Of a stretch of 48,985 nucleotides of DNA, positions 587 to 48,936 are shown piece after piece. The notes under the pieces are model-generated. The model did not search any database. It saw nothing but the letters and a program-made list of their open reading frames with translations, and was not told the DNA's origin. Source of the DNA: Dehalococcoidia bacterium (GTDB lineage: Bacteria > Chloroflexota > Dehalococcoidia > Dehalococcoidales > G020351185). The DNA lies in assembly GCA_020351185.1 (NCBI GenBank), contig CP070729.1, positions 1,314,077 through 1,363,061 on the forward strand, written 5' to 3'. The number at the start of each line of letters is the position of its first letter. Positions within the stretch are counted from its first letter, which is position 1. The position numbers and the translations under genes are program-made.

Positions 587-1099
587 ATGACAAGAGTAAA
601 AGCTTTTCTTAACAGTGGCGAATTGACTCTGGCATTGCGATTGTTGATAGCCGCATTAGTTCTTTACGCAGCCATTCCTAAATTCGCTGATATTGAGAAA
701 TATTCGGTATTTATGCTTTATAGTTATCAATTCCCTTGGCTCATGCCGGATATGGCCCACACTCGTATCTTGGGTTATATTGCACCTTATATAGAAACAC
801 TCATAGGACTTGGTCTGATAACAGGTGTTCTTACCAGACTATCCGCAGTCGGTTGGGGGCTTATGTCTCTGGTGTATATTGTAGTAAAAGTTCAAGTAAT
901 ATTTATTCAGGGGAGAATAATCCCCTGTGGTTGTTTTCCCGGTCCACTATCTGAAATGCTAATGACACAATCAGTATTAATTGATATCGTGTCGTTGCTA
1001 GCGTGTACTCAGATTATTTTGGCTAAGGGACGGAAGTTTTTTACCCTTGGATCACTACTGCCAGAAAACTGGCAGTATAGATTGCGCTATATCTGGTAA
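587..1099 (+). CDS. MauE/DoxX-family integral membrane protein
   Basis: 170 aa with about 4 TM segments and a PCGCF motif typical of MauE/DoxX-like proteins. Confidence 0.5.
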   Translation: MTRVKAFLNSGELTLALRLLIAALVLYAAIPKFADIEKYSVFMLYSYQFPWLMPDMAHTRILGYIAPYIETLIGLGLITGVLTRLSAVGWGLMSLVYIVVKVQVIFIQGRIIPCGCFPGPLSEMLMTQSVLIDIVSLLACTQIILAKGRKFFTLGSLLPENWQYRLRYIW

Positions 1100-1203: not shown

Positions 1204-2016
1204 CTATTCCTCTTGCTTTTCCACTTTCGGTGTTTCGTTAGATTTTAAAAACCGTACTCGGTTATATATTAGCAGACCAATGGCTATTACGAGTACAATG
1301 ATGCCTATAAATTGTGCTTGATGCAAACCCAAGAGGAATGGCTCATTAATCCTCAGGAAGCCGATACTAAAACGCCAAAGCGAATAGCTACTGAGGTAGA
1401 CAAGGAATAGCGAACCATCTGGTTTGAGTCTACCTTTTAGTAGCATAATAATACCGAACAGAAACAACAAGAACATGATTTCGTAAAGCTGTGTTGGGTG
1501 AACGGGTATATTCGTTATTTCGGCAGCGCAACTGGGATGTGTATAGGTTATACCCCAAGGTAGGGATGTTGGTGCCTCTGGGCCGTGACAACAGCCATTT
1601 AGGAAACAGCCCAACCTCCCTATTATCTGGGCTAATATAATGCCGGGTGCCACCAAATCGGTGCCAAAGCCGTAATTAAAAGGTCTGAAGCGGCTATAAA
1701 TCCAGGTTCCCAAAACTGCACCTAGGATAGCGCCGTAAATGGTAAGCCCTTCTCCGCCGATTATCTGACCAAGGTTCTGGCTGTAATACTCCCACTTATC
1801 GATTACATGTATCAGTCGAGCGAATATTATACCCGACGGTATTCCCACTATGGCAAGTGCTAGAATCCTGTCAGAGGGGAAACCGGGCCAATGCTTTCTT
1901 ACTTGCCAAAAGGTCCATAGTACGAGGACAAAAACCCCCAGTGCAATCATCAAACCGTACCATCTGATTTCGAGAGAACCGATGGTAAAGGCTATAGGGT
2001 CTATATTTATCTCCAT
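1204..2016 (-). CDS. lgt: prolipoprotein diacylglyceryl transferase
   Basis: Polytopic protein with the GRLGCFLNGCCHG motif. The ATG at 2016 has GGAGAG upstream and avoids overlap with the upstream helicase; the ORF track started at 2055. Confidence 0.85.
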   Translation of the reverse strand: MEINIDPIAFTIGSLEIRWYGLMIALGVFVLVLWTFWQVRKHWPGFPSDRILALAIVGIPSGIIFARLIHVIDKWEYYSQNLGQIIGGEGLTIYGAILGAVLGTWIYSRFRPFNYGFGTDLVAPGIILAQIIGRLGCFLNGCCHGPEAPTSLPWGITYTHPSCAAEITNIPVHPTQLYEIMFLLFLFGIIMLLKGRLKPDGSLFLVYLSSYSLWRFSIGFLRINEPFLLGLHQAQFIGIIVLVIAIGLLIYNRVRFLKSNETPKVEKQEE

Positions 2017-2035
2017 AATCTTCTCTCCGATCTTT

Positions 2036-4339
2036 CTAAAATACAAGCCCTTCAAGAATCAATCGGGCTGCTTTTTTGTCCAGTGGTTCATTGTTATTAC
2101 CACATTTGGGGGATTGGATGCAGCTGGGACATCCCTCGTCGCAAGGGCAATCTGCAATAATAGCAAGCGTTGCCTGCCATAGCTGCTGTATCAGATTATA
2201 TCCCTTTTCGGCGATACCAATACCACCGGGATAACCATCATAGATGAACACCTGGGGTTTACCTGAATCGGGGTGAAAGGGAGTGGAAACACCACCAATG
2301 TCATTGCGGTCACACATAGCGAATAGAGGCAACATGGCTATGGAAGCATGTTCGGTGGCATGTAAGCCACCGGCAAGATCAAGGTTTGCTCTGGCAAGTG
2401 AGGATATAACATCTTTCGGTAAGTCAAACCACAGGGCTATAGTGGGGAACTGGTGTGGGGGTAAATCTAGAGCCTCTTCACCGACTACCTCTTCAGTAAA
2501 GAGCGCCTTCTTTCTAAAGCTTACTATGGCGGTGGTGACCTCAACCTGACCTAGGTATACTTTTAAACGATTGAGCTTTTTCCTGTTGATGGTTTTTATG
2601 ATGCGTAAATCGGTTAAGTCCTTGGCAACAGTATAATAGGGAACTTTTACCAGTTTAGCATAGGCGGTTTTGCTGGTTAGGTCAAGACAATCCACCAGAT
2701 ACGATTCGCCTTGGTGAAGATAGATAGCACCAGGATGTAGTTGAAAAAGAGCAGTGTTTATCTCGACTGTCTCTAAAGGTAGATTCGTCATGCTGTTGAT
2801 AAGGGTGATTTTATCACTGGACGTAGCGCGTATGTTTATATCCTGTGCTGGGTAGGAAATAGATGTCGAAAGATATAGGCGGTTGTGTCTTTGTTTCAGA
2901 GCTCCTTGTTTTACAAGTATCTCAGTTTTTTCTGTTAATTCGTTACCAAAGAATTTTTCATCTGCAGTCGACAATGGTAGCTCCCAGGCAGCGCATAGTA
3001 AATGAGACCGCAATATGTAAGGATTCTGCTGGTTGATAATAGCGTTCTCGAAGCTTTTACTAAAAAAGAATTCCGGGTGATGCATCAGATACTGATCAAG
3101 CGGATTATCAACAGCGATTAAGATACTAAGGGAATTGTCATTACGTCGACCACTCCTACCTGCCTGCTGCCAGGTGCTGGCGATTGTTCCTGGATAGCCG
3201 GTAAGAATAGTCGCCTCAAGATCACCGACATCAATGCCTAACTCTAGTGCGTTGGTAGCTACCGCTCCGTTGAGTTTACCGCTAAAGAGCTCGTGCTCAA
3301 TAAGACGCCTTTCCTCCGGTAGATAGCCTGCCCGATATGCTTTTATTTTGTTTGCATGAGATGGGCTTGTTTCGTTTAACCTCTTCTTTGAATAACTAGC
3401 AATGAGCTCGGCAAGCCGGCGAGTACGACTAAAAGTAAGGGTACGGATATTATTGCTAACAAGTTCGGAAAACAATGCGGAGGCTTCACTGTTAGCACTA
3501 CGTCTTATGCTCTTAGCATCGTCGATTGTTGGTGGATTCCAAAAAATAAAATCTTTACTGCCCTTTGGTGAGCCGTCCTTATCCACCAGGTGGAAAGGGA
3601 GACCAACCAGCTCCTCGGCATGTTCCTGTGGATTATTAATTGTAGCTGAGCAACAGATAAAGAGGGGACTAGAACCGTAAAGAAGGCACAAACGACGGAG
3701 GCGACGTATTACCATTGCTACATGGGAACCGAAAACACCTCGATAGCTATGAGTTTCATCTATTACCACAAATTCTAAATGCCGCAATAACCTTGACCAA
3801 GAACGATGATTAGGCAATATGCCTAAATGTATCATATCGGGATTGGAGAGCACCAATTTGGCATTTTTTCTTATGGTTGAACGTTCTGATAATGGAGTGT
3901 CACCGTCAAAGGTGGCCACTTGTTCATAACGAACCAAATGAGGACAGAAAGTATCAGTAAAAGATCGAAGCTGGTCCTGTGCTAAAGCTTTAGTAGGGAA
4001 GAGGTAGATAGCACAACTTCTAGAATAAATAAGTAGCCTTTCTATTATAGGTATGTTATAGCAAAGACTCTTGCCACTTGCGCTCGATGTGGCAATTATA
4101 ACGTTATTACCATGGCGTGTGTGATTAATGGCTTGAGCCTGATGAGAGTAAAGGGGCAGTAATCCTTTTTCTTTAAGGCTTTTTTCTAAGGTATACGGTA
4201 GGGGATTTTCAAGATCAGCATAACTCGCATAGCGAGAAGAAATATGCTCGATATGAGCGATTTGGTTATCGTACTCATGTTCAAATGTCATTTGGTTAAC
4301 AAAGGTTGAGATATCCACCAAAGTTTCTCCGGCTAGCAT
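2036..4339 (-). CDS. DEAD/DEAH-box helicase with C-terminal DUF1998 Cys4 domain (YprA/MrfA-like)
   Basis: Walker A SSASGKS, a DETH box, helicase C motifs (QQAGRSGRR) and a terminal CPCDEGCPSCIQSPKCGNNN zinc cluster. Confidence 0.85.
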   Translation of the reverse strand: MLAGETLVDISTFVNQMTFEHEYDNQIAHIEHISSRYASYADLENPLPYTLEKSLKEKGLLPLYSHQAQAINHTRHGNNVIIATSSASGKSLCYNIPIIERLLIYSRSCAIYLFPTKALAQDQLRSFTDTFCPHLVRYEQVATFDGDTPLSERSTIRKNAKLVLSNPDMIHLGILPNHRSWSRLLRHLEFVVIDETHSYRGVFGSHVAMVIRRLRRLCLLYGSSPLFICCSATINNPQEHAEELVGLPFHLVDKDGSPKGSKDFIFWNPPTIDDAKSIRRSANSEASALFSELVSNNIRTLTFSRTRRLAELIASYSKKRLNETSPSHANKIKAYRAGYLPEERRLIEHELFSGKLNGAVATNALELGIDVGDLEATILTGYPGTIASTWQQAGRSGRRNDNSLSILIAVDNPLDQYLMHHPEFFFSKSFENAIINQQNPYILRSHLLCAAWELPLSTADEKFFGNELTEKTEILVKQGALKQRHNRLYLSTSISYPAQDINIRATSSDKITLINSMTNLPLETVEINTALFQLHPGAIYLHQGESYLVDCLDLTSKTAYAKLVKVPYYTVAKDLTDLRIIKTINRKKLNRLKVYLGQVEVTTAIVSFRKKALFTEEVVGEEALDLPPHQFPTIALWFDLPKDVISSLARANLDLAGGLHATEHASIAMLPLFAMCDRNDIGGVSTPFHPDSGKPQVFIYDGYPGGIGIAEKGYNLIQQLWQATLAIIADCPCDEGCPSCIQSPKCGNNNEPLDKKAARLILEGLVF

Positions 4340-14637: not shown

Positions 14638-14717
14638 TATCTACTACCTCCTCCTAAACACTATTTGAACTATATCTATTTTCTAGGTAGGTTGTCAAGA
14701 TCTTAAAGCTGAATTAA

Positions 14718-25292: not shown

Positions 25293-25312
25293 TTCAGCCT
25301 CCCTTTGTTCTA

Positions 25313-27391: not shown

Positions 27392-28879
27392 TTAGGTAGT
27401 ACGGTTGGCAAACAAAGAAACCGGAACAAGACGTTTTGGTGACTTGATACTATAATCTTCTATCAAAATAGCAGCCAGAATTATGATATCGAAATAAAAG
27501 AAATAGGGCCACAGGCTACGCCAAGCAAAAAATAACGGCAATACAGCCAGAAGTGGTCCTACATGTGGATAACGATTGCAATTATGATAGTACCATATTA
27601 TTGCTGTGATTCCGATAAGTAATTCCAAAATTGTGAAAAATAAAGGTGACTCAATGATTAAAACACCCCCAGTAACTAGAGTAATGATACCCACTCCCAA
27701 TGGGAAAAGATCATCAAATACTGGAGCCATTACTGATGTAAACCAAAGTAGAGGATCAATTATGATAAAAGGTAAATTGAACGCCAAGAATATAACAGCG
27801 ACAATAAATACAACTAACAGCGTCTTTTTCAAATCCATTATTCTAAAGATAAGTATCAGGTAATAAGGTATAAAGAACCAAGCTACCTGTTTGGTGGCTA
27901 TAGCTATACCCATAAATAGGGCAGATAACCACAGTTGCCTCTTTATGAGTATCCAAGCTAAGAGTAAAAATGGAAAGATAAGCGAACCTGTCTCGCCTGC
28001 GGCTATGCCAAACCATATTTCAAGACTGATTGAAACTGCACTAATGAAAAGAATTTTTTTATCCTTAGGGACTTTCCAGGCAACGTATGCCAGTATCGGA
28101 AGTACAAATATAAGAAGTACAATCCTGAAATCATCAATACCCAAAAGGAAAAAAATTGATGGTAAAATAAAACAACCAGCTGGATAATTGAGTTTGGATT
28201 CTAATTCCGGCGGTATTTGTTGTGGATTTTGTGACACTCTCTGCCATAATTGTTCCAATTGCGCATCGCTGGGATAAGGAAATATATCAGCAAACTCACC
28301 TTCCCGCAGAGGAGTTACCTGATCATATGAATTATCGTACAATATAGTAGCAGTAACTATATTTGGCATGGCATATGGATTATTACCATCTATTAAATTT
28401 TCGATAGCCTGGTGGCAAAGAGCTGTGCCATCATTATACGAGAGCACGCCTTCAAAAGAAGCCATCAATTCATTAGACTTCTTATTGGAGTCTTCGGCTG
28501 GAAACACTCCCACTCCAAATGAGGTTAATGTTATCAATAATCCCAACCCGGCAATAATAAATAGTGTTGAAATTACAATGGCACTCGGTTTTAGCCAATG
28601 TACCTGATTCTGTAGAAACTTGTCAGTCCTTGGCATTGCTATTAAAAAAAGAAGGATGAACCAGATAAGCCAAATAAAGGTACCGGTTACCATCATAGGG
28701 GTATCTTTCCAAACAAAACCTATACCTCCTAACAACGAGGCAACGAGTTTTACAAATATTGCAATGAAAAATAATAGTATTCTGGGTGTAGACTGTGTAT
28801 GGAAAAAGGCACGCATCTTTGAATGAAGATGTGAACAAATACGTGCTTTCTTTCCGGTGCCTTTTAGTTGTTCCATCAA
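27392..28879 (-). CDS. large polytopic membrane protein, possibly a GT-C-type (DUF2029/GT87-like) glycosyltransferase
   Basis: About 12 hydrophobic segments and one large soluble loop. The function call is a weak guess. Start uncertain. Confidence 0.4.
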   Translation of the reverse strand: MMEQLKGTGKKARICSHLHSKMRAFFHTQSTPRILLFFIAIFVKLVASLLGGIGFVWKDTPMMVTGTFIWLIWFILLFLIAMPRTDKFLQNQVHWLKPSAIVISTLFIIAGLGLLITLTSFGVGVFPAEDSNKKSNELMASFEGVLSYNDGTALCHQAIENLIDGNNPYAMPNIVTATILYDNSYDQVTPLREGEFADIFPYPSDAQLEQLWQRVSQNPQQIPPELESKLNYPAGCFILPSIFFLLGIDDFRIVLLIFVLPILAYVAWKVPKDKKILFISAVSISLEIWFGIAAGETGSLIFPFLLLAWILIKRQLWLSALFMGIAIATKQVAWFFIPYYLILIFRIMDLKKTLLVVFIVAVIFLAFNLPFIIIDPLLWFTSVMAPVFDDLFPLGVGIITLVTGGVLIIESPLFFTILELLIGITAIIWYYHNCNRYPHVGPLLAVLPLFFAWRSLWPYFFYFDIIILAAILIEDYSIKSPKRLVPVSLFANRTT

Positions 28880-28888: not shown

Positions 28889-30283
28889 TTACCGTTTTAG
28901 GTGGATCGTTTCACCGGTAATGTCTAGGGTAGCCTCCCACAAAGCCTCTGAGAGAGTAGGGTGGGCATGAAGTGTGTTTTTAATATCGTCTAATGTAGAC
29001 CCAAGTTTAATGGCCATTGTGGCTTCTGATATCAGATCAACAGCACCGGATCCTATTATATGTACTCCGATAATCCTGTCGTCATCATTATTAGCGATAA
29101 TCTTTACCATACCTCTTCTCTCGCCCAAAATGTTTGCCGCTGAATTTGCCGCAAATGGAAATTTGCCGCATTTAATGGAATAATACTGCATTTTTGCCTT
29201 ATCTTCGGATATACCGACACTAGCTACTTCAGGTAAGGTAAAGATACATCGTGGTACCACTCTATAGTCCATCTTTACATGCTCTCCAAGAGCATTTTCA
29301 GCAGCGATACGCCCTTCAGCCATAGCTGTATAGGCTAACATTAATCTACCTGTTACATCACCAGCCGCATATATATCAGCAACTGATGTTTCCATATACT
29401 CATTCACTTCAATTCTACCATTGGAAACAGCTATGCCACATTTATCTAATCCTAATCCATCAAAATACGGTTCGTACCCCGAAGCTATAGCAATCATCTC
29501 CGCTTCTATAGATTTTTGAGTATCCTTGATTGTTATTAAAACTCGCTTGGATTTATGATCCGTATCAATTCTGTTGACAACCACTCCGGTATATATCCTA
29601 ACACCATCTCTTTTCAATGCCCCTGCCAAGATTGTTGTTATTTCACTATCTTCTTCAGGTAGAATATGTGGCATTGTTTCGATAAGACTAACCCGACAAT
29701 TCAAATTAGCCAATATTGTCGCCATTTCCACACCGACAATACCAGCACCAATGATGACAATGCTCTTAGGGATATAATTAAGATTTAGAATATCCTCAGC
29801 AAATATTATTTCCCGATGAGAAGCCCCAGGTATATCTAATTTTTTTTCCCTAGACCCAGTAGCCAAAATTATTTTATCCGCAACAATGGAATGGCTATCA
29901 CCCCCTTCATTAAATACCTCTATGCTTCCTTTTGATACTAGTTTTGCATGTCCTTTTATGACTTCGATGCCATTCATTTCTATAACGCTATTAAGCCCAG
30001 TAATTAGGGTAGATATAAGTCTATTCTTACTAGACTGCAATTTGGCTAAGTCAATGCAGTTAATGGAAGCATCAATGCCATATTTGGTAGAATCCTTGAT
30101 GAGCCGATATATTTCCACACACCTTAGAAGAAATTTAGTGGGTATACATGCCCTATTCAAACAGGCACCGCCGACTTCAATATTATCAATCATGACCACT
30201 TCGGCCCCAAGCTGTGCAGCTCTAATAGCAGCTGTATAACCAGCTGGACCACCACCAATCACTGCGACACATTTCCCCTTCAT
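28889..30283 (-). CDS. lpdA: dihydrolipoyl dehydrogenase
   Basis: GGGPAGY FAD motif, redox-active CLNRACIPTK, GAGIVGVE NAD motif and HAHPTLSE at the C-terminus. Confidence 0.85.
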   Translation of the reverse strand: MKGKCVAVIGGGPAGYTAAIRAAQLGAEVVMIDNIEVGGACLNRACIPTKFLLRCVEIYRLIKDSTKYGIDASINCIDLAKLQSSKNRLISTLITGLNSVIEMNGIEVIKGHAKLVSKGSIEVFNEGGDSHSIVADKIILATGSREKKLDIPGASHREIIFAEDILNLNYIPKSIVIIGAGIVGVEMATILANLNCRVSLIETMPHILPEEDSEITTILAGALKRDGVRIYTGVVVNRIDTDHKSKRVLITIKDTQKSIEAEMIAIASGYEPYFDGLGLDKCGIAVSNGRIEVNEYMETSVADIYAAGDVTGRLMLAYTAMAEGRIAAENALGEHVKMDYRVVPRCIFTLPEVASVGISEDKAKMQYYSIKCGKFPFAANSAANILGERRGMVKIIANNDDDRIIGVHIIGSGAVDLISEATMAIKLGSTLDDIKNTLHAHPTLSEALWEATLDITGETIHLKR

Positions 30284-30313: not shown

Positions 30314-30691
30314 TTACTTAATTAAATCAGAATATTCCTCGGCGGATAACAAGGAATCAATCTCATCGATATCGCTGATATCAATTACAAACATCCATCC
30401 CTTACCATATGGATCACTATTAATAATGCCAGGTGTTTTCTCTAGTTTTTTATTTATCTCAAGAACTGTGCCGCTAACGGGACTGTATAGGTCACTGGTA
30501 GCTTTGGATGATTCAATCAAACCAAACACACCGTCCCGGCATATATCAGCGCCTACCTTAGGTAGTTCGATAAAGACAATGTTTCTTAATTGCTCTTGGT
30601 AATAATGGGTTATGCCTATTGTTCCTCTATTATCCTCATCAATCTTCAACCAAGTGTGTTCAGTGCTGTATTTTAATTGACTAGGGTACAT
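30314..30691 (-). CDS. gcvH: glycine cleavage system H protein (lipoyl carrier)
   Basis: YSTEHTWLK...GLIESSKATSDLYSPVSG contains the lipoyl-lysine motif. The ATG at 30691 has GGGAGG upstream. Confidence 0.85.
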   Translation of the reverse strand: MYPSQLKYSTEHTWLKIDEDNRGTIGITHYYQEQLRNIVFIELPKVGADICRDGVFGLIESSKATSDLYSPVSGTVLEINKKLEKTPGIINSDPYGKGWMFVIDISDIDEIDSLLSAEEYSDLIK

Positions 30692-30869
30692 ACAATCCTC
30701 CCGCAAAATAAAACTAATAAAAACATTAAAAACTGACTATAGAATATCACATGGATGTTTTTACTTAAAGAACCATCCATCCACTACTTTGGATAATAAT
30801 CCATTATTTAGGTGAATGTTAAGCTTTTGTTAATAAACAGCAACAAACCCATTGCATAAATATTATGTA

Positions 30870-39231: not shown

Positions 39232-39260
39232 TTGACAAATCGATAGAAATGTTCGATAAT
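39232..39260 (+). promoter_or_regulatory. putative sigma-70 promoter of the ars operon, giving a leaderless or near-leaderless arsR mRNA
   Basis: TTGACA, 17 nt spacer, GATAAT. The -10 element ends 7 nt before the arsR ATG and there is no SD. TCGATA/TCGAA repeats overlap the promoter. Confidence 0.45.
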
Positions 39261-39267: not shown

Positions 39268-39642
39268 ATGTCGAATAATCGAATTATAGATATTCATCAA
39301 CTTACTGAAATATTCAAAGCTCTTTCCAATACCAACCGTCTTAGAATCTTCATGCGTTTAACCTATTGTGCTGGACAAATACAGAATACTAAATCAGACG
39401 ATCAGATTTGTGAATGTGTTGGCACATTAGGCAACGACCTAGCAATTGCACCATCCACCATTTCTCATCACTTAAAGGAGCTTAGCCATTCAGGGCTTAT
39501 CACGATGACTAGACGGGGTCAGAATGTTGAATGTCAAGTAAATCCTGAGGCATTAAATTTATTAAATACTTTTTTTAACGAAGCTTGCGCCACATCAATT
39601 ACTATACAAAATGATCATGTTCCGGGCCAATTACAGGCCTGA
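39268..39642 (+). CDS. arsR: ArsR/SmtB-family metalloregulator
   Basis: Winged-helix HTH (PSTISHHLKELSHSGLI) preceded by CEC at the position of the ArsR CVC As(III) site. Confidence 0.8.
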   Translation: MSNNRIIDIHQLTEIFKALSNTNRLRIFMRLTYCAGQIQNTKSDDQICECVGTLGNDLAIAPSTISHHLKELSHSGLITMTRRGQNVECQVNPEALNLLNTFFNEACATSITIQNDHVPGQLQA

Positions 39643-39654
39643 AGGAGAGTGTAA

Positions 39655-39954
39655 ATGAATAAAAAGATAACTATCTATGAACCAACACTATGTTGTGACA
39701 GTGGTGTCTGCGGACCCAACCCTGACCAAGCGCTGATAACATTACAAGATACTATAGATAAAGCAAAGGAAAAGGGAATCGAAACTGAACGTTTTACCAT
39801 TACTTCACACCCAAAAAAATTCCAAGAAAATCCTGAGGTAATAAAACTGTTACAGGAAAAAAAGTTGAATGCCCTGCCCATTACTGCTTTTGAAGGACAG
39901 ATTATAAAAGCAGGCAGCTACCCAACTCTTGATGAATTAATCCGATATTTTTAA
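39655..39954 (+). CDS. arsD: arsenic metallochaperone ArsD (short form)
   Basis: IYEPTLCCDSGVCGP matches the ArsD Cys12-Cys13-Cys18 motif. Thioredoxin-like length and adjacent to arsA. Confidence 0.85.
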   Translation: MNKKITIYEPTLCCDSGVCGPNPDQALITLQDTIDKAKEKGIETERFTITSHPKKFQENPEVIKLLQEKKLNALPITAFEGQIIKAGSYPTLDELIRYF

Positions 39955-39997
39955 TTGACAATGGCAATATTTAGGAAATAAGTCGTTATAATTTTAG

Positions 39998-41878
39998 ATG
40001 GGAAAAAGCTTAAAAACTAGATTTTATTTCTTTTCCGGCAAGGGTGGAGTCGGTAAAACAACAATGGCTTGTGCAAGTGCTATCTACCTTGCCGCCCTTG
40101 GGGAAAAAACTCTTATCATTACGACCGATCCGGCATCCAATCTAGCCGATGTTTTCGAACAGAACATAGGGAACGAGATAACTACAATCAATACAACTAC
40201 TAATCTTTTTGCTCTTGAGCTGGATCCCGATAAAGCCACCGAAGAGTATAAGCAACGGACTATTGCACCACTACAAGGTATAGTTCCCCCTGAAAGTCTT
40301 GAAGTCATTGAGGAACAGTTAAACTCTCCATGCACAGCAGAAGTAGCTGCTTTTGAACGTTTTACCGATTTTCTACAGGACCCTGAATTCGATACTGTTA
40401 TCTTTGATACTGCCCCAACCGGTCACACGCTGAGACTAATTCAATTACCTGTTGAATGGAGCGGAGTTATTGAAGAAGCCGCTAGGAGCGGCACAGGTGG
40501 TCAAACCTGTGTTGGTCCAGCAGCATCACTAGCTGAATCGAAACTAAAATTTGACCGTGCCATCGAAGCTATGCGTAATCCCGATGAAGCAACCTTTATC
40601 TTTGTTTTACGCCCAGAAGCTACATCTATTTATGAAACGAATAACTCAATCACCGAACTTTCCAAACTGGGAATAAGGTCACAAGAATTAATTGTCAATG
40701 GCATTTATCCACAGAATATTTGTGATAGCCCGTTTATGAAAGGTCGTTATTCGCGTCAACAACAATTCTTGCAAACCATAAAAGATGACTTCTCTTTACC
40801 TACCACTTTAGTAGAACTAAAACCTAGCGAGGTAAAAGGGGTTGCAGCGCTATATGAAGTGGCAGAAGCGATTTTTAAAAAACCGATGAGTATGGATAAC
40901 TATTCACCGATTATATTAGAAAACATTCAAGTAACCTCCATACAAAATTATCCGTCCACAGACTTAGCCATAAACCAACTGTTAACACCTATTAACGGAA
41001 GAAGAACAATATTCTTTGCCGGCAAGGGCGGGGTCGGTAAAACCTCTGTTGCCGCAGCAACTAGTCTCTGGATAGCAAAACAAGGATACCGGACAATATT
41101 AATTACTACTGATCCAGCATCTCATTTAGCTCAGGTCTTCGAGCAAAATATATCCGACAAACCTACCCTCATAGAGGGTGAACAACACTTATGGATATCG
41201 CATATTGATCCGTCGAAGGCTGCACAGCAGTACAAAGAAAAAGTCTTGGCTGAAATACAACAGAAATACGATGAAAAAAGAGTTCTTGCCGTCGAGGAGG
41301 AGCTAAATTCGCCTTGCACCGAGGAGATGGCAACTTTTGAGAAATTCATAGAATTCGCTACCCTAAAGGATTACGAGGTTATGATCTTTGATACAGCACC
41401 AACAGGCCACACCCTTCGCCTGTTAAATTTACCAGTTGAATGGAATAGACAACTGGAAATAAAGATTTTTACAACCGTGGAGTCCAATGCAGATAAGATT
41501 ACCAAATCCCGCTTTCTTGAAGTTATCAACATGATGCAAGACCCAGAACAAACCACATTCAGTTTTGTTATGTATCCAGAAAAGACCCCAATCGAAGAAG
41601 CCAGCCGGGCAATGAGTGAATTATCAGAAATTGACATAAAAACCTCACTCGTTGTCGCTAACATGATATTACCTAATACAATAATAACAAATGATTACTG
41701 GCGACAGCGTCAGGCTATGCAAAAAGAATATCTAAAAGAAATGAAAAATAGATTCAAAGCACCCATTATACAACTGCCGCTTCTTGATGAAGATCTTATG
41801 GGTAAAGATAAATTAGTGCAGGCTGGAATGTTGCTTTATGGTATAAAAAACCCGGTAGCAGAAGGAGTAAAGAAATGA
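39998..41878 (+). CDS. arsA: arsenite-stimulated ATPase ArsA (two homologous halves)
   Basis: GKGGVGKT occurs twice and DTAPTGHTLRL twice. Equivalents of the R773 ArsA metalloid cysteines are present: NSPCTAEVAAF, GGQTCVGP, NSPCTEEMATF. Confidence 0.92.
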   Translation: MGKSLKTRFYFFSGKGGVGKTTMACASAIYLAALGEKTLIITTDPASNLADVFEQNIGNEITTINTTTNLFALELDPDKATEEYKQRTIAPLQGIVPPESLEVIEEQLNSPCTAEVAAFERFTDFLQDPEFDTVIFDTAPTGHTLRLIQLPVEWSGVIEEAARSGTGGQTCVGPAASLAESKLKFDRAIEAMRNPDEATFIFVLRPEATSIYETNNSITELSKLGIRSQELIVNGIYPQNICDSPFMKGRYSRQQQFLQTIKDDFSLPTTLVELKPSEVKGVAALYEVAEAIFKKPMSMDNYSPIILENIQVTSIQNYPSTDLAINQLLTPINGRRTIFFAGKGGVGKTSVAAATSLWIAKQGYRTILITTDPASHLAQVFEQNISDKPTLIEGEQHLWISHIDPSKAAQQYKEKVLAEIQQKYDEKRVLAVEEELNSPCTEEMATFEKFIEFATLKDYEVMIFDTAPTGHTLRLLNLPVEWNRQLEIKIFTTVESNADKITKSRFLEVINMMQDPEQTTFSFVMYPEKTPIEEASRAMSELSEIDIKTSLVVANMILPNTIITNDYWRQRQAMQKEYLKEMKNRFKAPIIQLPLLDEDLMGKDKLVQAGMLLYGIKNPVAEGVKK

Positions 41879-42435
41879 ACCAACAAGACATATCCGATCC
41901 TGAAAAACAAAATGAAGAATTGATATCGTCTTCGGTTCTGGGCAAGTGGTTCCCACGGGGTAAGCGCTGGCGTACAATAATTTTCACTGTTACCCTAATT
42001 GCAGCTATCGCAATCGCTACAAATTCAATAATTAGGTATGAGAGCAGCAGGGTAGTAGATGCACAACCGAATATCACGCCAACGATAACTACACCCCTAG
42101 AAGAAATCACTGCTCCCCAGTTTATTGAGGATCGCCAAGAGGCATACCTTTCCGATAATAAGCTTGTGCTTGTCATAACACCAGTGAATGATGACGGCCT
42201 AAATGAGCCTGTTACTGATACTGTAATTGAAGCAGCAAATAATATTCAGGATACGGATAATATTCATGTAGGAGTATATACACTACCAAAGGATGAATAT
42301 GCCACAAGTCCCAGTGTTACGGTTAGAGTATTGCATCATGATCCAACTAAACCAGACCTCTCTTGGACAATCCGCGAAGATATAACCACATCTAGCATCT
42401 ACGAAACCTATCTCAACTTTGTATTTATTCAATAG
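41875..42435 (+). CDS. hypothetical N-terminally membrane-anchored, cysteine-free protein (186 aa)
   Basis: Its start overlaps the arsA stop (ATGA). One TM helix (IIFTVTLIAAIAIATNSII) followed by a ~125-aa extracytoplasmic domain. Confidence 0.5.
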   Translation: MNQQDISDPEKQNEELISSSVLGKWFPRGKRWRTIIFTVTLIAAIAIATNSIIRYESSRVVDAQPNITPTITTPLEEITAPQFIEDRQEAYLSDNKLVLVITPVNDDGLNEPVTDTVIEAANNIQDTDNIHVGVYTLPKDEYATSPSVTVRVLHHDPTKPDLSWTIREDITTSSIYETYLNFVFIQ

Positions 42436-42443
42436 ACAAAGGA

Positions 42444-43181
42444 GTGGTAATAATGGAAGATTGGATAATGGAAATTCTCAAAGGTGACCAGTTTGGTCTG
42501 CTAGCATTTCTTGCTGCTTTTTTGTTCGGGATATCCAGCGCTTTCACTACTGCAGCCTGTGGTGGTATCCCCGCAATGTTGGTTATCGTCGGTTATACTG
42601 GTGCCAGTAAGGGTGGACGTCGACAATTATTTATTACGGCAGCTGCCTTCACAATAGCTTCAGTTACTGCACTAATGCTTCTTGGAGCGCTAATGAGTTA
42701 CTTCGGCGGGGCTATGCAGGATCTAACCGGCAGGTTAGGTTTTTATGCCTTGAAAGCAGTTGGTCTTATAGCCATATTTATCGGTTTTTTGGCACTCGAC
42801 ATTTTACCCTTTCGAGTCCCGGAATTCAAGCTAGCGCCGGAGAAGGTGCCAAGTGGTATTTTAGGTGCTTCTGTAATCGGACTTACCGCCGGCCTGGCAT
42901 CGGCCGGTTGCGCCGCTACTTGCTCACCTATACAACTCCCAGTCGTACTAGGGCTAGCAACACTTAGAGGTGAAATGTTGCAAGGTGCTTTCATACTCGG
43001 TTTATTTGCACTGGGATATACCTTCCCAATTGTGGCTATTATGCTTGGTGTAGGCATGGGTAAAGCTTCGAGAATTATGGCTAAAATTGACAAACCGCTT
43101 CGAATTATATCGGGAATCTTCCTTATTGGCGTCGGCTTTTATCTGATATCAATAATGAGTTTATCTATAAAGATTAATTAG
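42444..43181 (+). CDS. CcdA/DsbD-superfamily (DsbD_2-like) thiol-disulfide electron-transport membrane protein
   Basis: About 6 TM segments with one Cys-containing motif in each half (TAACGGIP and ATCSPIQLP). The ATG at 42453 with AAGGAG upstream is the likelier start. Confidence 0.65.
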   Translation: MVIMEDWIMEILKGDQFGLLAFLAAFLFGISSAFTTAACGGIPAMLVIVGYTGASKGGRRQLFITAAAFTIASVTALMLLGALMSYFGGAMQDLTGRLGFYALKAVGLIAIFIGFLALDILPFRVPEFKLAPEKVPSGILGASVIGLTAGLASAGCAATCSPIQLPVVLGLATLRGEMLQGAFILGLFALGYTFPIVAIMLGVGMGKASRIMAKIDKPLRIISGIFLIGVGFYLISIMSLSIKIN

Positions 43182-43205: not shown

Positions 43206-43958
43206 ATGTATCATAAGTCAGAAAAGAAAACAGCTGCGAGAAAGAGTAGACAAAAACAACTTCAATCTATAACCAGACGTCATTTCTTAAAAGAAGCCAG
43301 TATTATAGTAGGTGGAATAGCTTTAACCTCAGTACCATTAACATCAGCTTGTAGTGATTCTGGACACATTTCTACCTCGAATAATACAAATAATACTCCA
43401 ATTAGTACACTTACAGGCGAAAACACATCGACTAAAACAACAACTAAAGATACTTCAATTACATCAGTAAATACCGAAATTTACACTCCCAACGTGACAT
43501 GGAATGGTGAATATATTCCTCCTAATGAGGACCCCGAGGTGGAGCCAATACCTGGTTGCACTACGTTTGTAGCCGTGGACCGACTCTATGCTATAGAGCA
43601 CATGTGGATTAAGCCAATTGCTGAAGGTATTGTAGTTATTGGGATTACTGAGAAATTTCTTGAATTCCTAGAAGATGTATTTTTAATATCACTTCAAGAC
43701 GTTAGTACTACCATTACGCGTAATTCATACCTTGGGGATATAGAAGCAAAAAAAATGAACGTTGAAATGGTAGCTCCAGTCAGCGGAGTGATACTGCAAA
43801 ATAATGATAAAATTTTAGATGATCCAGATTGGGTCGAGAAAAGACCATATGTTAGTGGCTGGTTTCAGGTAATACAACTAAGCAATCCCAACGAGCTAAA
43901 TGAACTCCTTACAGCTGAAAAGTATATATCATATCAAGCCAAAGTTGTTGTCGAATAA
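43206..43958 (+). CDS. Tat-signal, possibly lipid-anchored, GcvH-like (lipoyl-carrier fold) exported protein
   Basis: TRRHFLK twin-arginine motif, h-region ending LTSAC, an S/T/N-rich linker, then a ~125-aa domain that aligns without gaps to the window's own gcvH, including the lipoyl Lys (K183, 43752-43754). Confidence 0.7.
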   Translation: MYHKSEKKTAARKSRQKQLQSITRRHFLKEASIIVGGIALTSVPLTSACSDSGHISTSNNTNNTPISTLTGENTSTKTTTKDTSITSVNTEIYTPNVTWNGEYIPPNEDPEVEPIPGCTTFVAVDRLYAIEHMWIKPIAEGIVVIGITEKFLEFLEDVFLISLQDVSTTITRNSYLGDIEAKKMNVEMVAPVSGVILQNNDKILDDPDWVEKRPYVSGWFQVIQLSNPNELNELLTAEKYISYQAKVVVE

Positions 43959-47135: not shown

Positions 47136-47942
47136 ATGAATAATACGAATATTCAGGTTTGTATTCGAGGAGCTGGCGAGCTTGCTACCGCAGTGGCTCA
47201 TAAACTTCATAAATGTAACTTTCGGGTGTTCCTAACCGAGATTGCTAACCCTAAGGCAGTAAGAAGAAAAGTTGCATTTTGCGAAGCTGTACACCTTGGT
47301 TCTATAGAAGTCGAGGGTGTTACCGCTGAACTGGTAGTAACTACTAATGAAATTAATGCTGTTTGGCAAAGAGGTAATATTCCCCTTATTATTGGCCCGA
47401 AGATTTCAATAATAGGTAATGCAAAAGTAGATGTATTCATTGACGCTATTATGGCAAAAAAGAATACTGGTGTTTATAAGAATCTAGCTCCCTTAGTCAT
47501 CGGTCTAGGTCCCGGGTTTTCTGCTGGAAGGGATGTAGATGTGGTTATAGAGACTAAGAGGGGGCATGATTTGGGTCGAATCATTCTTGAAGGAGAAGCC
47601 GAGCCTAATACCGGTATTCCCGGTGTCATCGGTGGTTATTCAAAGGAGCGTGTTTTTCGAGCACCTCAAGAAGGCACATTTAAGAATGTTAAAGACATTG
47701 GTGATATAGTAGAGGCTGGTGAGACGTTAGCCATAGTTGACGGGATCCCCGTTAAAGCTGAAATTAGCGGTGTGATCCGAGGTATGTTAGCTAATGGAAC
47801 TAATGTTCACGTAGGTATGAAGGCTGGAGATATAGACCCGCGTGGCATAAAGAGGTATTGCTATACTATCTCAGATAAAGGACGTACTATCGCTGGTGGC
47901 GTGGTAGAAGCCATCCTTTCATGGAATAAATTATATGAATAA
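47136..47942 (+). CDS. YqeB-family protein (selenium-dependent molybdenum hydroxylase system accessory protein-like)
   Basis: From memory of the TIGR03309-type N-terminus: IRGAGELATAVAHKLHKCNFRVFLTEI..P.AVRRKVAFCEAV...VEGVTA. AAGGAG lies upstream. Confidence 0.55.
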   Translation: MNNTNIQVCIRGAGELATAVAHKLHKCNFRVFLTEIANPKAVRRKVAFCEAVHLGSIEVEGVTAELVVTTNEINAVWQRGNIPLIIGPKISIIGNAKVDVFIDAIMAKKNTGVYKNLAPLVIGLGPGFSAGRDVDVVIETKRGHDLGRIILEGEAEPNTGIPGVIGGYSKERVFRAPQEGTFKNVKDIGDIVEAGETLAIVDGIPVKAEISGVIRGMLANGTNVHVGMKAGDIDPRGIKRYCYTISDKGRTIAGGVVEAILSWNKLYE

Positions 47943-48591: not shown

Positions 48592-48936
48592 CTAGCCTAA
48601 AAGTTTTTCAAGAATTGCCTTATTGGCACCAAAATATACTTTCTCTCCTATGCGGATCACAGGTCTGCGTATGAATCGTGGTTCTTGCAACATTAATTTG
48701 ATCAGTTCTTTATTGTTCAACTTATCCTGTTTTAATCCCAATTTCTTTAAGCTAGGGCTTTTAAAATTAAACATCTTAGAAGCTGATTCGCCCTTTAATA
48801 GTTCCTCTATTTCATCCTTATCGAATGGGTATTTAAAAAAATCACGCTCATTTATTTTCACATTTTGTTGCGAAAGAAACTCTTTCGCTTTACGACATGT
48901 GTTTCATCTTACCCAGCAATAGAAGTCAACTTTCAT
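48592..48936 (-). CDS. ArsC/Spx-family thioredoxin-fold protein, probable selenoprotein (UxxC; in-frame TGA at 48904-48906)
   Basis: The ATG at 48936 gives MKVDFYCWVR-U-NTCRKAKEFLSQQNVKINERDFF..., continuous with the 89-aa track ORF. U aligns with the first Cys of the Spx CxxC. A hairpin lies downstream. Confidence 0.7.
48870..48888 (-). promoter_or_regulatory. putative bacterial SECIS hairpin
   Basis: On the minus strand: GCGAAAG-AGTTT-CTTTCGC, a 7-bp stem with GU in the loop, starting 15 nt after the in-frame TGA. Confidence 0.5.

Follow-up and report, generated by a model that had tools for sequence, protein, structure and literature searches.

A predicted Tat-exported, lipid-anchored H-protein paralogue of Dehalococcoidia encoded in ars-type gene clusters

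A gene of a Dehalococcoidia bacterium (GenBank GCA_020351185.1, contig CP070729.1) encodes a protein, here called TatGcvH, that is likely an exported and lipoylated relative of the H protein. The gene is the last of an ars-type operon in a window of 48,985 nucleotides, by which we mean the whole stretch of DNA that was analysed. The H protein is a carrier of lipoic acid and is normally cytoplasmic, and all lipoylated proteins known to us (E2 subunits, H protein, LbpA and GcvH-L) act in the cytoplasm or in organelle matrices. As predictions, the export and the lipoylation of TatGcvH are well supported by inference. A role linked to arsenic or metalloid stress is probable, and the arsenic chemistry itself is put forward as a hypothesis. 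The complete proposal, that TatGcvH is a paralogue of the H protein of glycine cleavage, specialised for a task outside the cytoplasmic membrane and acting by the full mechanism described below, is tentative and is given slightly less than an even chance.

The TatGcvH reading frame comprises 250 aa, its translation was confirmed, and from the N-terminus onwards it consists of a Tat signal, a lipobox with Cys49, a linker that is rich in Ser, Thr and Asn and modelled as disordered, and finally an H-protein domain (Table 1). The NCBIfam model TIGR01409 (TAT_signal_seq) matches the N-terminus with 18.5 bits against a cut-off of 16.7. The n-region before the twin-arginine motif has a net charge of +6, and the h-region spans 18 residues with a mean Kyte-Doolittle hydropathy of 1.59. 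The L-T-S-A-C49 sequence fits the PROSITE PS51257 lipobox pattern, except that the long Tat signal carries the Cys past the position limit of that pattern. Lipidation at Cys49 is predicted, and since the window also encodes Lgt, the genome should be able to make lipoproteins. This Lgt is 50% identical to the one flanking the TatGcvH-LipB-LipA cluster of another locus, L030 (the loci compared are numbered with the prefix L). The twin-arginine motif and the lipobox had both been named in the initial annotation, and both are upheld by the signal matches, by Lgt and by the conservation of RR and Cys throughout the family. The annotation was also right in calling the linker rich in Ser, Thr and Asn, which make up 61% of residues 50-100; its length is about 50-65 residues, instead of the approximately 70 that had been claimed. 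This tether is modelled as disordered (AF2, pLDDT <50), and its sequence and length differ between homologues. Cys118, the sole Cys of the mature protein besides the lipidated Cys49, lies in a region that is modelled confidently as a beta-hairpin with strands at 112-114 and 121-123 (AF2).

Table 1. Features of the window, with positions counted from its first nucleotide
Feature	Position	Strand	Basis
Lgt, prolipoprotein diacylglyceryl transferase	1204..2055	-	Pfam LGT PF01790, 190.8 bits
DoxX/MauE-family membrane protein, unlinked from the operon here	587..1099	+	82% identical to L002 DoxX
Dihydrolipoyl dehydrogenase (Lpd), adjoins canonical GcvH	28889..30283	-	TIGR01350, 477.5 bits vs 408.8
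Canonical cytoplasmic GcvH, comparator, no signal peptide	30314..30706	-	TIGR00527, 150 bits vs 115.85
Sigma-70-like promoter match TTGACA-17-GATAAT, 11/12, upstream of arsR	39232..39260	+	Consensus match only
ArsR/SmtB-family metalloregulator, first operon gene	39268..39642	+	NF033788, 59 bits vs 55; Pfam HTH_5
ArsD arsenite metallochaperone, CC...C motif LCCDSGVCGP	39655..39954	+	tblastn, 76% identity to L002 ArsD
ArsA, two-domain arsenical pump-driving ATPase	39998..41878	+	Pfam ArsA_ATPase, E 1.3e-150, two stretches
ORF186, single-pass membrane protein, P/T-rich linker, ~100-aa outer domain	41875..42435	+	ORF, conservation
DsbD/CcdA-superfamily membrane protein, W type	42444..43181	+	Weak Pfam DsbD_2, homologues, Cys conservation
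TatGcvH, H-protein paralogue with Tat signal and lipobox	43206..43958	+	ORF, translation, Pfam, NCBIfam, alignment, model
Twin-arginine motif T-R-R-H-F-L-K, aa 23-29	43272..43292	+	TIGR01409, family conservation
Cys49, lipobox L-T-S-A-C, predicted lipidation/cleavage site	43350..43352	+	Conservation
Ser/Thr/Asn-rich flexible tether, aa 50-100	43353..43505	+	Composition, model pLDDT
Cys118, I-P-G-C-T-T motif just N-terminal to the H domain	43557..43559	+	Conservation, model
H-protein (GCV_H) domain, aa 127-243	43584..43934	+	Pfam PF01597, Foldseek
Lys183, predicted lipoyl-lysine, E-A-K-K-M-N-V-E	43752..43754	+	Alignment to window GcvH, conservation

The C-terminal domain is matched by Pfam PF01597 (GCV_H) at 88.6 bits against a gathering score of 22.2 (E 3.7e-25). 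As the initial annotation had proposed, it aligns without gaps to the canonical GcvH of the window, over 113 residues and with 36% identity, and IEAKKMN of TatGcvH comes to stand opposite IESSKAT of GcvH, so that Lys183 is aligned to the lipoyl-lysine at the position that had been given for it; P191 and G194 follow on its C-terminal side. The kinship extends to the predicted structure. The AF2 model of the domain has a pLDDT of 88-97, and its top Foldseek match in the PDB is the bovine H-protein 3klr (E 2.8e-13, target TM 0.93, rmsd 1.3 Å), with target TM values of 0.86-0.93 to most solved H-proteins. The matches include holo-H-proteins, among them H-protein complexes with LplA and LIAS. By sequence models TatGcvH falls under the GcvH equivalog and subfamily cut-offs (71.3 bits vs 115.85 for TIGR00527, 93.9 vs 117 for NF002270), both of which the canonical GcvH of the window passes. 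Its scores also lie under the cut-offs of NF045810 (GcvH-related, Desulfobacterota type; 27.8 bits vs 150) and of TIGR03077 (not_gcvH; 59.7 vs 144.05). Biotinylation of TatGcvH was considered as well and was rejected on account of the H-protein fold and of LipB and LipA as neighbours.

The TatGcvH family consists of about 100 sequence clusters, and all members that bear names belong to Dehalococcoidia, a restriction based on these named members and on a genome scan. About 89 cluster representatives were found at E <= 1e-30, and about 70 of them matched over the full length. Across the 106 members that were aligned, the twin arginines recur in 97-99 of 100, a Cys at the lipobox position in 101 of 103, and the lipoyl-lysine in 104 of 106; P191 (106/106) and G194 (105/106) are conserved as well. 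Such conservation of RR, lipobox Cys and Lys is far more than chance would give. The residues flanking the lipobox Cys vary within [TSAL][STA][AGS]C, and 99 of 101 members have A, G or S at position -1. A Cys occurs within aa 112-124, at the position of Cys118, in 86 of 96 full-length members (~90%). The same genome also encodes a paralogue of TatGcvH, P0026 (JSV74_06430).

In the window the gene order is arsR-arsD-arsA-ORF186-dsbD-like-tatGcvH. The arsR, arsD and arsA genes share one strand, with gaps of 12 to 43 nt or an overlap of 4 nt. A promoter-like sequence precedes arsR, in a region where such sites are no more numerous than in shuffled sequence. A terminator scan gave none after tatGcvH, and the sole match of an Rfam scan of the window was tRNA-like, with neither a riboswitch nor a leader close to the operon. 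The ArsD of L002, to which that of the window was compared, scores 102 bits on NF033727 (cut-off 90). The ArsA of the window reaches 472 bits on TIGR00345 (cut-off 135) and lies under the ArsA equivalog cut-offs of TIGR04291 (500.7 vs 650) and NF041417 (642.6 vs 800). ORF186 has no family match in Pfam or NCBIfam and no BLASTP similarity to the CxC lipoprotein that holds the same position in the G-type loci described below. It is conserved in L003, L006, L012, L024, L025, L026 and L030, invariably between arsA and the DsbD-like gene; its AF2 model, made from 10 homologues, was unusable (mean pLDDT 44.8). Neither ArsB nor Acr3 is encoded within the window, and no lipB or lipA lies near its tatGcvH locus, so that lipoylation there would have to occur in trans.

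Elsewhere, the cluster that holds tatGcvH continues shortly downstream with lipB and lipA in 10 of the 14 informative loci (L001, L005, L006, L007, L008, L009, L011, L025, L028 and L030), and lipA alone is present in L010. The LipB of the clusters scores 147 bits on TIGR00214 (cut-off 83.6) and the LipA 333.5 on TIGR00510 (cut-off 310.25), while the LipS2 model reaches just 33 bits against 270. This clustering lends independent support to the idea that TatGcvH is lipoylated before Tat export. Same-strand ars genes (ArsR/ArsD/ArsA, Acr3 or an ArsP_1 permease) are part of 13 of 17 clusters, and in L030 arsD and arsR stand between tatGcvH and lipB-lipA, which joins the arsenic, lipoylation and TatGcvH themes in one cluster. 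The link is not universal: L032 consists of DsbD_2-TatGcvH-LipA beside AOR and BcrAD/HGD-D genes and has no ars genes, and L023, which adjoins ccmEFABC, likewise counts against it. None of the 17 clusters contains gcvT or gcvP.

A DsbD-family gene with its membrane-embedded Cys kept lies directly upstream of tatGcvH in 14 of 17 loci. The other three have a DoxX/MauE protein and an exported rhodanese with a C-D-U motif instead; in L002, DoxX comes after TatGcvH and the rhodanese, and Acr3 is encoded (TIGR00832, 370 bits vs 282.8). The DsbD-like neighbours fall into two subtypes, the W type and the G type. The W-type protein of the window, whose true start is probably the ATG at 42453, has conserved Cys in TM1 (TAACGG) and TM4 (GCAATCSP). 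It scores 18.6 bits on Pfam DsbD_2, under the gathering score of 24.9, and close homologues carry PF02683 and are named CcdA in some sources. A PDB sequence search with both types gave no usable relative. On NF040495, the model of the ArsG permease, the W-type protein scores 31 bits and the L001-type neighbour 239.6 (cut-off 200). The G-type loci are arranged as ArsR, ArsP_1 permease, ArsE-family Trx-like protein, weak ArsF-like lipoprotein, ArsG-family DsbD_2 protein and TatGcvH. A cytoplasmic Trx-like protein (TIGR00412, 99 bits vs 62) and an exported CxC lipoprotein are thus both encoded ahead of their DsbD gene, and by analogy this gene set is the layout of a relay from Trx through CcdA to an outer acceptor. 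The neighbour of TatGcvH had been described in the initial annotation as a CcdA-type reductant transporter. It probably belongs to the DsbD/CcdA superfamily, on a match that is itself weak, and the transporter role is no more than possible, because one subtype scores as an ArsG arsenical permease. The ars operon, the conserved Cys118 and the division of the neighbour into two subtypes had escaped the initial annotation.

Several known systems share features with TatGcvH. With GcvH (PF01597; PDB 3klr, 3ab9) it has in common the fold, the lipoyl-lysine hairpin, Glu at -3 and the downstream P-x-S-G. Unlike GcvH, it possesses a Tat signal, a lipobox, a long tether and a Cys-containing motif before the domain, its Lys motif is K-[MLI]-N and not V-K-A, and it is encoded in ars- or DsbD-type clusters away from gcvT and gcvP. 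LbpA is reportedly a lipoate-binding H-like protein of sHdr sulfur-oxidation clusters, which is said to be cytoplasmic, to partner an Hdr-like complex and to be matured by sLpl(AB) and LipS1/LipS2. Both LbpA and TatGcvH are stand-alone H-protein paralogues diverted from glycine cleavage and co-encoded with lipoylation enzymes and rhodanese-type sulfurtransferases, but TatGcvH differs in its export signals, in its ordinary LipB/LipA maturation genes and in clusters that contain no Hdr genes. GcvH-L, from the SirTM/macrodomain/LplA2 operon of Streptococcus and Staphylococcus, is likewise an H-like lipoyl carrier in a stress operon with a dedicated lipoylation enzyme. Unlike TatGcvH, it is cytoplasmic, regulated by ADP-ribosylation, devoid of a signal peptide and found outside any ars/DsbD context, and the Foldseek match of TatGcvH to GcvH-L 5a35 (E 2e-7, target TM 0.84) is much weaker than those to true H-proteins. 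As in the CcdA/DsbD relays that lead from Trx to ResA, CcmG or DsbC, the gene of a protein with Cys in TM1 and TM4 adjoins that of an exported, redox-capable protein, and at some loci a cytoplasmic Trx-like protein is encoded upstream. Here, however, a lipoyl arm would stand where those relays have a CxxC protein of the thioredoxin fold, and the DsbD-like protein of the window scores under the Pfam gathering score.

Two further gene sets touch on arsenic or on selenoproteins. We know of no H-like protein and no lipB/lipA in the arsEFG set as described. ArsEFG serve to detoxify organoarsenicals in Shewanella putrefaciens (Chen, Zhang & Rosen 2019, cited in PMC9144182), and the G-type loci resemble them in having ArsE-, ArsF-like and ArsG-family genes (NCBIfam TIGR00412, NF040494 and NF040495). 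The DsbD-like protein of the window differs in its low score on the ArsG model. The other set is the 'three selenoprotein operon' neighbourhood, Tso (Haft & Tolstoy 2025, listed in the review PMC13188914), to which the NCBIfam models NF045694 (TsoB rhodanese/DsbD fusion), NF045707 (TsoR) and, as its adjacent accession number leads us to infer, NF045810 ('GcvH-related protein') belong. Going by the NCBIfam names and that review, Tso unites an ArsR-type regulator, a rhodanese with selenocysteine, a membrane domain of the DsbD type and perhaps a GcvH-related protein, all of which recall the TatGcvH clusters, but it belongs to a different phylum and has its components fused differently. All four Tso-type models give weak matches here, with scores far under their cut-offs (27.8 bits vs 150 for NF045810, 29.6 vs 805 for TsoB).

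The mechanism that we propose would begin in the cytoplasm, where apo-TatGcvH would fold and the co-encoded LipB and LipA would octanoylate Lys183 and insert sulfur. The folded, cofactor-carrying protein would be exported via Tat, a route that its being folded and loaded would account for. Lgt would then lipidate Cys49, the signal peptide would be removed, and the H domain would be held at the outer face of the membrane by its tether of ~50 residues. Going by the genomic context, the dihydrolipoyl arm may offer a dithiol there to which trivalent arsenicals bind or by which they are processed, with Cys118 probably giving a third sulfur to the site, and the upstream DsbD/CcdA-superfamily protein may keep the arm in the dithiol form, or return it to that form, with cytoplasmic reductant. 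Where, as at some loci, the DsbD-like protein is missing, its part would fall to a DoxX/MauE protein and a rhodanese-like lipoprotein that contains selenocysteine. ArsR would control the operons that express the whole unit, and these operons would also supply ArsD and ArsA, or else Acr3 or ArsP. Dihydrolipoyl dithiols bind As(III) and organoarsenic(III) very tightly, which is the classical basis of arsenite toxicity, and Dehalococcoidia are thought to place key respiratory enzymes on the cell surface; capture of arsenicals would shield the exposed face that bears these enzymes. It counts against this mechanism that a surface-bound chelator is purely stoichiometric, so that lasting resistance is hard to explain. 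Furthermore, the clustering with lipB and lipA could reflect arsenic damage to lipoyl enzymes, and the DsbD-like neighbours may be arsenical exporters and not electron conduits.

The constant core of the loci is a DsbD gene (or DoxX and a rhodanese), TatGcvH and the lipoylation genes, and the ars genes are frequent yet dispensable (L001, L023, L032). This would suit a redox carrier of general use outside the cytoplasm, which would accept electrons at the outer end of a relay from Trx through DsbD/CcdA or a DoxX equivalent and would pass reducing equivalents to the selenocysteine rhodanese lipoprotein, to the CxC lipoprotein or to cytochrome c maturation factors. Arsenic would then be merely one inducing stress, and the arm would bind it to no functional end. 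The ccm genes beside L023 and the proteins that flank the DsbD gene in G-type loci speak for such a carrier, as does the Lpd-DlaT-AhpD-AhpC relay of M. tuberculosis, in which lipoamide is a known electron donor. A carrier of this kind nevertheless seems rather unlikely: the ars genes share the strand in most loci, and arsD and arsR stand within the module in L030, the clusters have no conserved outer partner with a thioredoxin fold of the kind of ResA or CcmG, and we know of no precedent for a DsbD-family protein that reduces a lipoyl group.

Arsenic might also be handed on without any redox relay, from ArsD to ArsA, from there to a three-Cys protein of the DsbD superfamily and finally to the lipoyl arm and Cys118 of TatGcvH, which would end the chain with an As(III) site of three sulfurs. 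In that case the DsbD-like neighbours would serve as exporters, one subtype as a permease akin to ArsG and the other as a partner of ArsA in the membrane that is new, and As(III) would pass by thiol ligand exchange and be held outside or given there to, for example, sulfide or the Sec-rhodanese. ArsA requires a membrane partner, and L026 has a complete operon of ArsR-ArsD-ArsA-ORF186-DsbD(W) with no ArsB or Acr3 within 7 kb. The W type retains exactly three membrane Cys, and the two lipoyl sulfurs and one Cys of mature TatGcvH would supply the three sulfurs that usually coordinate As(III) in ArsR, ArsD and ArsA. The product of LipA is, moreover, a reduced dithiol and the hosts are anaerobic, so that an external reductant would not strictly be needed. 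The L001-type neighbour exceeds the cut-off of the model named 'aromatic aminobenzylarsenical efflux permease ArsG', but the function of ArsG is taken from NCBIfam names and from a citation of Chen et al. 2019 in PMC9144182. The W type scores low on that model and has homologues otherwise annotated as CcdA, L002 keeps TatGcvH despite having Acr3 and no DsbD gene, and the fate of the protein-bound arsenic is left unexplained. The chain, with its three-sulfur site as terminal acceptor, is regarded as unlikely.

It is very improbable that TatGcvH is exported but unlipoylated, or otherwise modified, with lipB and lipA present for the repair of arsenic-damaged cytoplasmic lipoyl enzymes. The Lys motif E-[GA]-x-K-[MLI]-[NST] does depart from the canonical E-S-V-K-A and has Met, Leu or Ile at +1 as biotinyl domains do, the protein scores under the GcvH equivalog cut-offs, and lipB and lipA are missing near the window locus. 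Around Lys183, however, the protein keeps Glu at -3, an acidic side chain at +4 and P-x-S-G from +8 to +11, features common to E2 lipoyl domains and H-proteins. The predicted structure matches holo-H-proteins, among them those in complex with LplA and LIAS, the use of Tat best suits a protein that is folded and modified prior to export, and repair alone hardly accounts for 10 loci in which lipB and lipA are linked to the gene at operon level. The idea that TatGcvH is an ordinary cytoplasmic glycine-cleavage H protein with an over-long, mis-called N-terminus, in keeping with the name 'glycine cleavage system H protein' that members bear in some sources, is effectively refuted by the N-terminal 120 residues, which, RR, the lipobox Cys and the PGC motif among them, stay in register across ~100 clusters, and it is further opposed by the separate canonical GcvH of the window and by the absence of gcvT and gcvP from all clusters.

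The reading preferred here thus remains that of an exported, lipoylated and lipid-anchored H-protein paralogue. A literature search found no description of an exported lipoyl protein or of a TatGcvH-like protein, in line with the initial annotation, to which no extracytoplasmic lipoyl carrier next to a CcdA-type transporter was known, and if confirmed, TatGcvH would be the first lipoyl protein working outside the cell membrane, as far as the literature found extends. With a lipid-anchored lipoyl carrier that leaves through Tat and has lipB and lipA to itself, lipoate biology would reach the outer face of the membrane, and cofactor loading before export would rationalise the use of Tat. TatGcvH also suggests that membrane proteins of the DsbD/CcdA type may have a novel kind of acceptor. 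The location of its gene in ars operons ties TatGcvH to the oldest known molecular target of arsenic, and an external dithiol cofactor as an arsenic-handling device becomes a testable idea. If the reading as a three-sulfur acceptor were true, the capture of arsenic by the lipoate dithiol, which is the cause of arsenite toxicity, would have been repurposed as resistance. Because the family is compact, with ~100 clusters, one lineage and conserved partners, experiments can be designed directly. For Dehalococcoidia, which play an important part in anoxic aquifers that are contaminated, such handling of arsenic outside the cell would be of consequence.

The TatGcvH reading frame is present in the DNA as the initial annotation had it, and its translation is the 250-residue protein described there; NCBI holds an identical protein, and the window itself comes from a metagenome-assembled genome of Dehalococcoidia. 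An n-region with a net charge of +6 precedes the Tat motif T-R-R-H-F-L-K (residues 23-29), followed by an 18-residue h-region of moderate hydrophobicity (mean KD 1.59) and by L-T-S-A-C49, which terminates the signal. The claimed Tat signal is recognized by the NCBIfam Tat-signal model (18.5 bits against a curated cut-off of 16.7), and the twin arginines are kept in the family. Ser, Thr and Asn make up 61% of residues 50-100, and an AlphaFold2 model based on the aligned family leaves residues 1-91 disordered but reaches pLDDT 88-97 between about residue 100 and the C-terminus. The C-terminal domain (residues 127-243) is covered by Pfam GCV_H (E = 3.7e-25) and aligns gaplessly to the window's own GcvH over 113 residues at 36% identity, placing K183 (nt 43752-43754) opposite the lipoyl lysine, both as had been claimed. 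The proposed H-protein fold is likewise borne out, since in a Foldseek search of the model against the PDB, H-proteins filled the top 21 ranks (bovine H-protein 3klr: E = 2.8e-13, target TM 0.93, rmsd 1.3 Å). E. coli holo-H (3ab9) and H-proteins complexed with LplA and with human LIAS are among the top matches, and GcvH-L (5a35), a stress-operon paralogue, occupies the next rank after the H-proteins with a weaker match.

A word-indexed search returned 36 clusters. When 1.84 billion representatives were searched exhaustively with a profile, 89 came back at E <= 1e-30, about 70 of which match the profile full-length at 210-290 aa. In an alignment of 106 members, the RR of the Tat motif is kept in 97-99 of 100, the lipobox Cys49 in 101 of 103, Lys183 in 104 of 106, Pro191 in all 106, Gly194 in 105, Asp125 in 102 and Arg126 in 101. 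Directly N-terminal to the H domain lies an I-P-G-C118-T-T motif whose Cys is present in 86 of 96 full-length members; in the mature window protein, C118 is the sole cysteine besides the one predicted to be lipidated. A mis-called N-terminus is excluded by the conservation of the N-terminal region. Because the Tat signal, the H-protein fold and a conserved lysine were all found, the earlier interpretation is supported, and it is extended here.

All taxon-named members belong to Dehalococcoidia, Dehalococcoidales or Chloroflexota; in a scan of species-representative genomes, all full-length matches are Dehalococcoidia, and matches outside the phylum cover the signal peptide only. Several genomes hold tandem paralogue pairs (loci L005/L023, L011 and L025) drawn from two subgroups that differ in the pre-domain, 'TWxGxY' in one and 'LPPAEGFVY' in the other; the window's genome has an unlinked second-subgroup copy (P0026, JSV74_06430) at 42% identity. 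The RR motif, h-region, lipobox Cys and Thr-rich tether also occur in other Dehalococcoidia proteins, adjoining an aldehyde:ferredoxin-oxidoreductase-like gene (judged by N-terminal sequence) in L003 and an ORF of 759 aa in L008. These account for the signal-only matches L013-L016, and to judge from sequence the tethered Tat-lipoprotein design is a habit of the lineage.

By domain and by fold TatGcvH is an H-protein. It nevertheless scores below both NCBIfam glycine-cleavage H-protein cut-offs, no gcvT or gcvP was found near it in the mapped clusters, and its signals predict a location outside the cytoplasm, so that NCBIfam's definition of a functional glycine-cleavage-system member does not fit it. 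The canonical cytoplasmic GcvH adjoins dihydrolipoyl dehydrogenase, and gcvT/gcvP are absent beside this pair among the annotated window ORFs; a neighbouring 495-aa ORF has no Pfam or NCBIfam match.

In the window, tatGcvH is the last gene of a closely packed same-strand operon with gaps of 12 to 43 nt, a 4-nt overlap between arsA and ORF186 (a single-pass membrane protein gene of no known family) and a promoter-like site directly upstream. Seventeen distinct tatGcvH-bearing loci were gathered and mapped with one shared reference set, using tblastn; at 13 of these loci the cluster includes ars genes. ArsR-ArsD-ArsA is found in the window, L002, L003, L024, L025 and L028, joined by Acr3 in L002 (370 bits against 282.8), as is probable also for L025 and L028; ArsA is visible in L012, whose contig ends early; and ArsR, an ArsP_1 permease and an ArsE-family thioredoxin-like protein occur in L004, L007, L008 and L011. 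Among the 14 loci with long enough contigs, 10 have lipB and lipA closely downstream in the same cluster (TIGR00214, 147 bits against 83.6; TIGR00510, 333.5 against 310.25), and one further locus has lipA without lipB. L025 presents the complete set in one row, ArsR-ArsD-ArsA-ORF186-DsbD-TatGcvH-TatGcvH-LipB-LipA, and in L030 arsD and arsR lie between tatGcvH and lipB-lipA, the cluster being flanked by Lgt.

A DsbD-family gene directly precedes tatGcvH in 14 of the 17 loci; in the other three, which lack it, genes for a rhodanese-like lipoprotein and a membrane protein of the DoxX/MauE type lie downstream instead. The suggestion of a CcdA-type neighbour may hold for the window-like (W) type, whose homologues carry PF02683, are in some cases named CcdA and keep Cys in TAACGG (TM1) and GCxxxC (TM4), whereas the second subtype, at other loci, has GPC and FCP motifs and passes the NCBIfam ArsG cut-off (239.6 bits against 200). 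In this second cluster type, TatGcvH is preceded by ArsR (CVC motif), an ArsP_1 permease, an MTH895/ArsE-family thioredoxin-like protein, a C-F-C lipoprotein with a weak ArsF-like match and an ArsG-family DsbD_2, an arrangement resembling both an arsEFG-type set and a relay from Trx through DsbD to an outer thiol. BcrAD_BadFG activator genes and two HGD-D genes (2-hydroxyacyl-CoA dehydratase or benzoyl-CoA reductase type) turn up repeatedly next to TatGcvH/LipA, downstream of the module in three loci and upstream in one, there with AOR and a 384-aa ferredoxin-like protein. Apart from the operon, the window has a DoxX/MauE gene, 82% identical to the copy in the L002 ars-TatGcvH cluster, with the C-terminus of a CCG-motif (Hdr/GlcF-like) protein before it and, facing it, Lgt and a DEAD/MrfA-type helicase; the same Lgt-helicase pair adjoins LipA in L030.

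Coordinates of features in the window and in the compared loci
Locus	Feature	Position	Strand	Score
window	CCG-motif protein (C-terminus)	1-225		
window	DoxX/MauE	587-1099	+	
window	Lgt	1204-2055	-	PF01790, 190.8 bits
window	ORF overlapped by tRNA-like match	24090-25370		
window	tRNA-like match	25321-25378	-	42.6 bits
window	495-aa ORF	27392-28879	-	
window	dihydrolipoyl dehydrogenase	28889-30283	-	TIGR01350, 477.5 bits against 408.8
window	canonical GcvH	30314-30706	-	
window	arsR	39268-39642	+	
window	arsD	39655-39954	+	
window	arsA	39998-41878	+	
window	ORF186	41875-42435	+	
window	DsbD-superfamily membrane protein	42444-43181	+	
window	tatGcvH	43206-43958	+	
window	YqeB	47136-47942		343 bits against 220
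window	ArsC/Spx-family ORF	48592-48936	-	
L026/L027	ArsR-ArsD-ArsA-ORF186-DsbD (W type)	3881-7714		
L003	tethered Tat-lipoprotein	1769-2593	-	
L008	tethered Tat-lipoprotein	14200-15009	+	
L004	second cluster type	748-3689		
L007	second cluster type	6157-9195		
L008	second cluster type	7017-9981		
L011	second cluster type	4712-7498		
L001	rhodanese-like lipoprotein	8762-9250		
L002	rhodanese-like lipoprotein	3724-4209		
L005	rhodanese-like lipoprotein	about 11580-12080		
L010	rhodanese-like lipoprotein	635-1150		
L001	BcrAD_BadFG and HGD-D genes	13044-15423		
L023	BcrAD_BadFG and HGD-D genes	15996-18693		
L025	BcrAD_BadFG and HGD-D genes	8339-10842		
L032	BcrAD_BadFG and HGD-D genes	2635-5854		

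In four loci, the gene directly after TatGcvH encodes a rhodanese-like lipoprotein (signal ...L-T-A-C-G-G) with an in-frame TGA in a conserved (F/W)-C-D-TGA-P-D-D. The frame is conserved for about 45 codons past the TGA, and a conserved hairpin, UCUGCC...GGCAGA, begins about 17 nt after it, with G-C to G-U changes between loci. The product is probably a selenoprotein of the C-x-U type, akin to 'rhodanese form 3', a name given in PMC13188914; it scores 54 bits on NF041203 against 115. In the window, the ArsC/Spx-family ORF reads M-K-V-D-F-Y-C-W-V-R-TGA-N-T-C-R-K-A, where the in-frame TGA (48904-48906) stands in for the first Cys of the usual CxxC; its product is therefore probably a selenoprotein of the UxxC type (TIGR01617, 70.7 bits against 75; NF041106, ArsC family (seleno)protein, 43.9 against 85). 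YqeB, a selenium-dependent Mo-hydroxylase maturation protein, is also encoded there. Rfam matches the window at one place only, a partial tRNA-like element (model positions 8-63 of 71) overlapping the start of an ORF.

Taken together, sequence, conservation and context give good support to TatGcvH as an H-protein paralogue that is predicted to be lipoylated in the cytoplasm by LipB and LipA, exported folded by Tat with its cofactor already loaded, and lipidated at Cys49, so that a flexible tether would keep it at the membrane's outer face. Export of a folded, cofactor-loaded protein would explain why a Tat rather than a Sec signal is conserved, and since Lgt is encoded in the window, the lipoprotein pathway is available to this organism. 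Trivalent arsenicals are bound very tightly by dihydrolipoyl dithiols. From this affinity, the ars-operon clusters and the additional conserved thiol Cys118, we hypothesize that TatGcvH serves as an extracytoplasmic arsenical-handling dithiol, which would capture or process trivalent arsenicals while the neighbouring DsbD-family protein (or DoxX with rhodanese) maintains its dithiol state. The redox part of this model is supported by the loci with an ArsG-like DsbD_2, which encode a Trx-like protein of the cytoplasm, a DsbD-type protein of the membrane and an exported lipoprotein with CxC, arranged as in a classical transmembrane thiol relay. TatGcvH may act as a redox carrier, an arsenic acceptor or both. 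Because the arsenic link is not universal, a general extracytoplasmic redox carrier is a serious rival: in L032, which lacks ars genes, DsbD_2-TatGcvH-LipA sits next to AOR and BcrAD/HGD-D genes, and the L023 locus adjoins ccm genes. Alternatively, the DsbD-like proteins may be arsenical exporters from which TatGcvH takes As(III) by ligand exchange, making a redox relay needless. One DsbD subtype scores as the ArsG permease family, and L026 holds a complete, self-contained ArsR-ArsD-ArsA-ORF186-DsbD(W) operon with no TatGcvH nearby and no ArsB or Acr3 within 7 kb (L026/L027; the same gene order occupies 39268-43181 of the window). The W-type protein, with its three conserved membrane Cys, may thus be ArsA's membrane partner, and would then be an undescribed one. 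That TatGcvH is not lipoylated is unlikely: its lysine motif is K-[MLI]-N where the canonical one is V-K-A, and lipB/lipA are not near tatGcvH at the window locus, but the residues around the lysine are conserved and lipB-lipA are linked to the gene at other loci.

The closest functional analogues of TatGcvH, LbpA of sHdr systems and GcvH-L, are also diverted H-like lipoyl carriers, but both are cytoplasmic whereas TatGcvH carries export signals. Its clusters are similar in composition to the arsEFG gene set, as given by PMC9144182, which cites Chen et al. (2019), and by the NCBIfam names, and to the Tso selenoprotein neighbourhood as given in a review (PMC13188914, listing Haft and Tolstoy, 2025). 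The Tso models include a rhodanese/DsbD fusion and a regulator of the ArsR type; a "GcvH-related protein" probably belongs with them, to judge from its neighbouring accession number. Both likenesses are leads and not memberships, in the case of Tso because all scores to its models fall far below the cut-offs. A full-text literature search found no exported or Tat-dependent lipoyl or H protein described, and public annotation of the family goes no further than "Tat signal domain-containing protein" or "glycine cleavage system H protein". TatGcvH would thus take a known carrier domain, with its cofactor, into a cellular compartment new to it, where its partners are new and its use probably is too. 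An extracytoplasmic lipoyl protein would be unexpected to a lipoate specialist, the link to arsenic makes compelling chemical sense, and so well defined a family lends itself to direct experiments.
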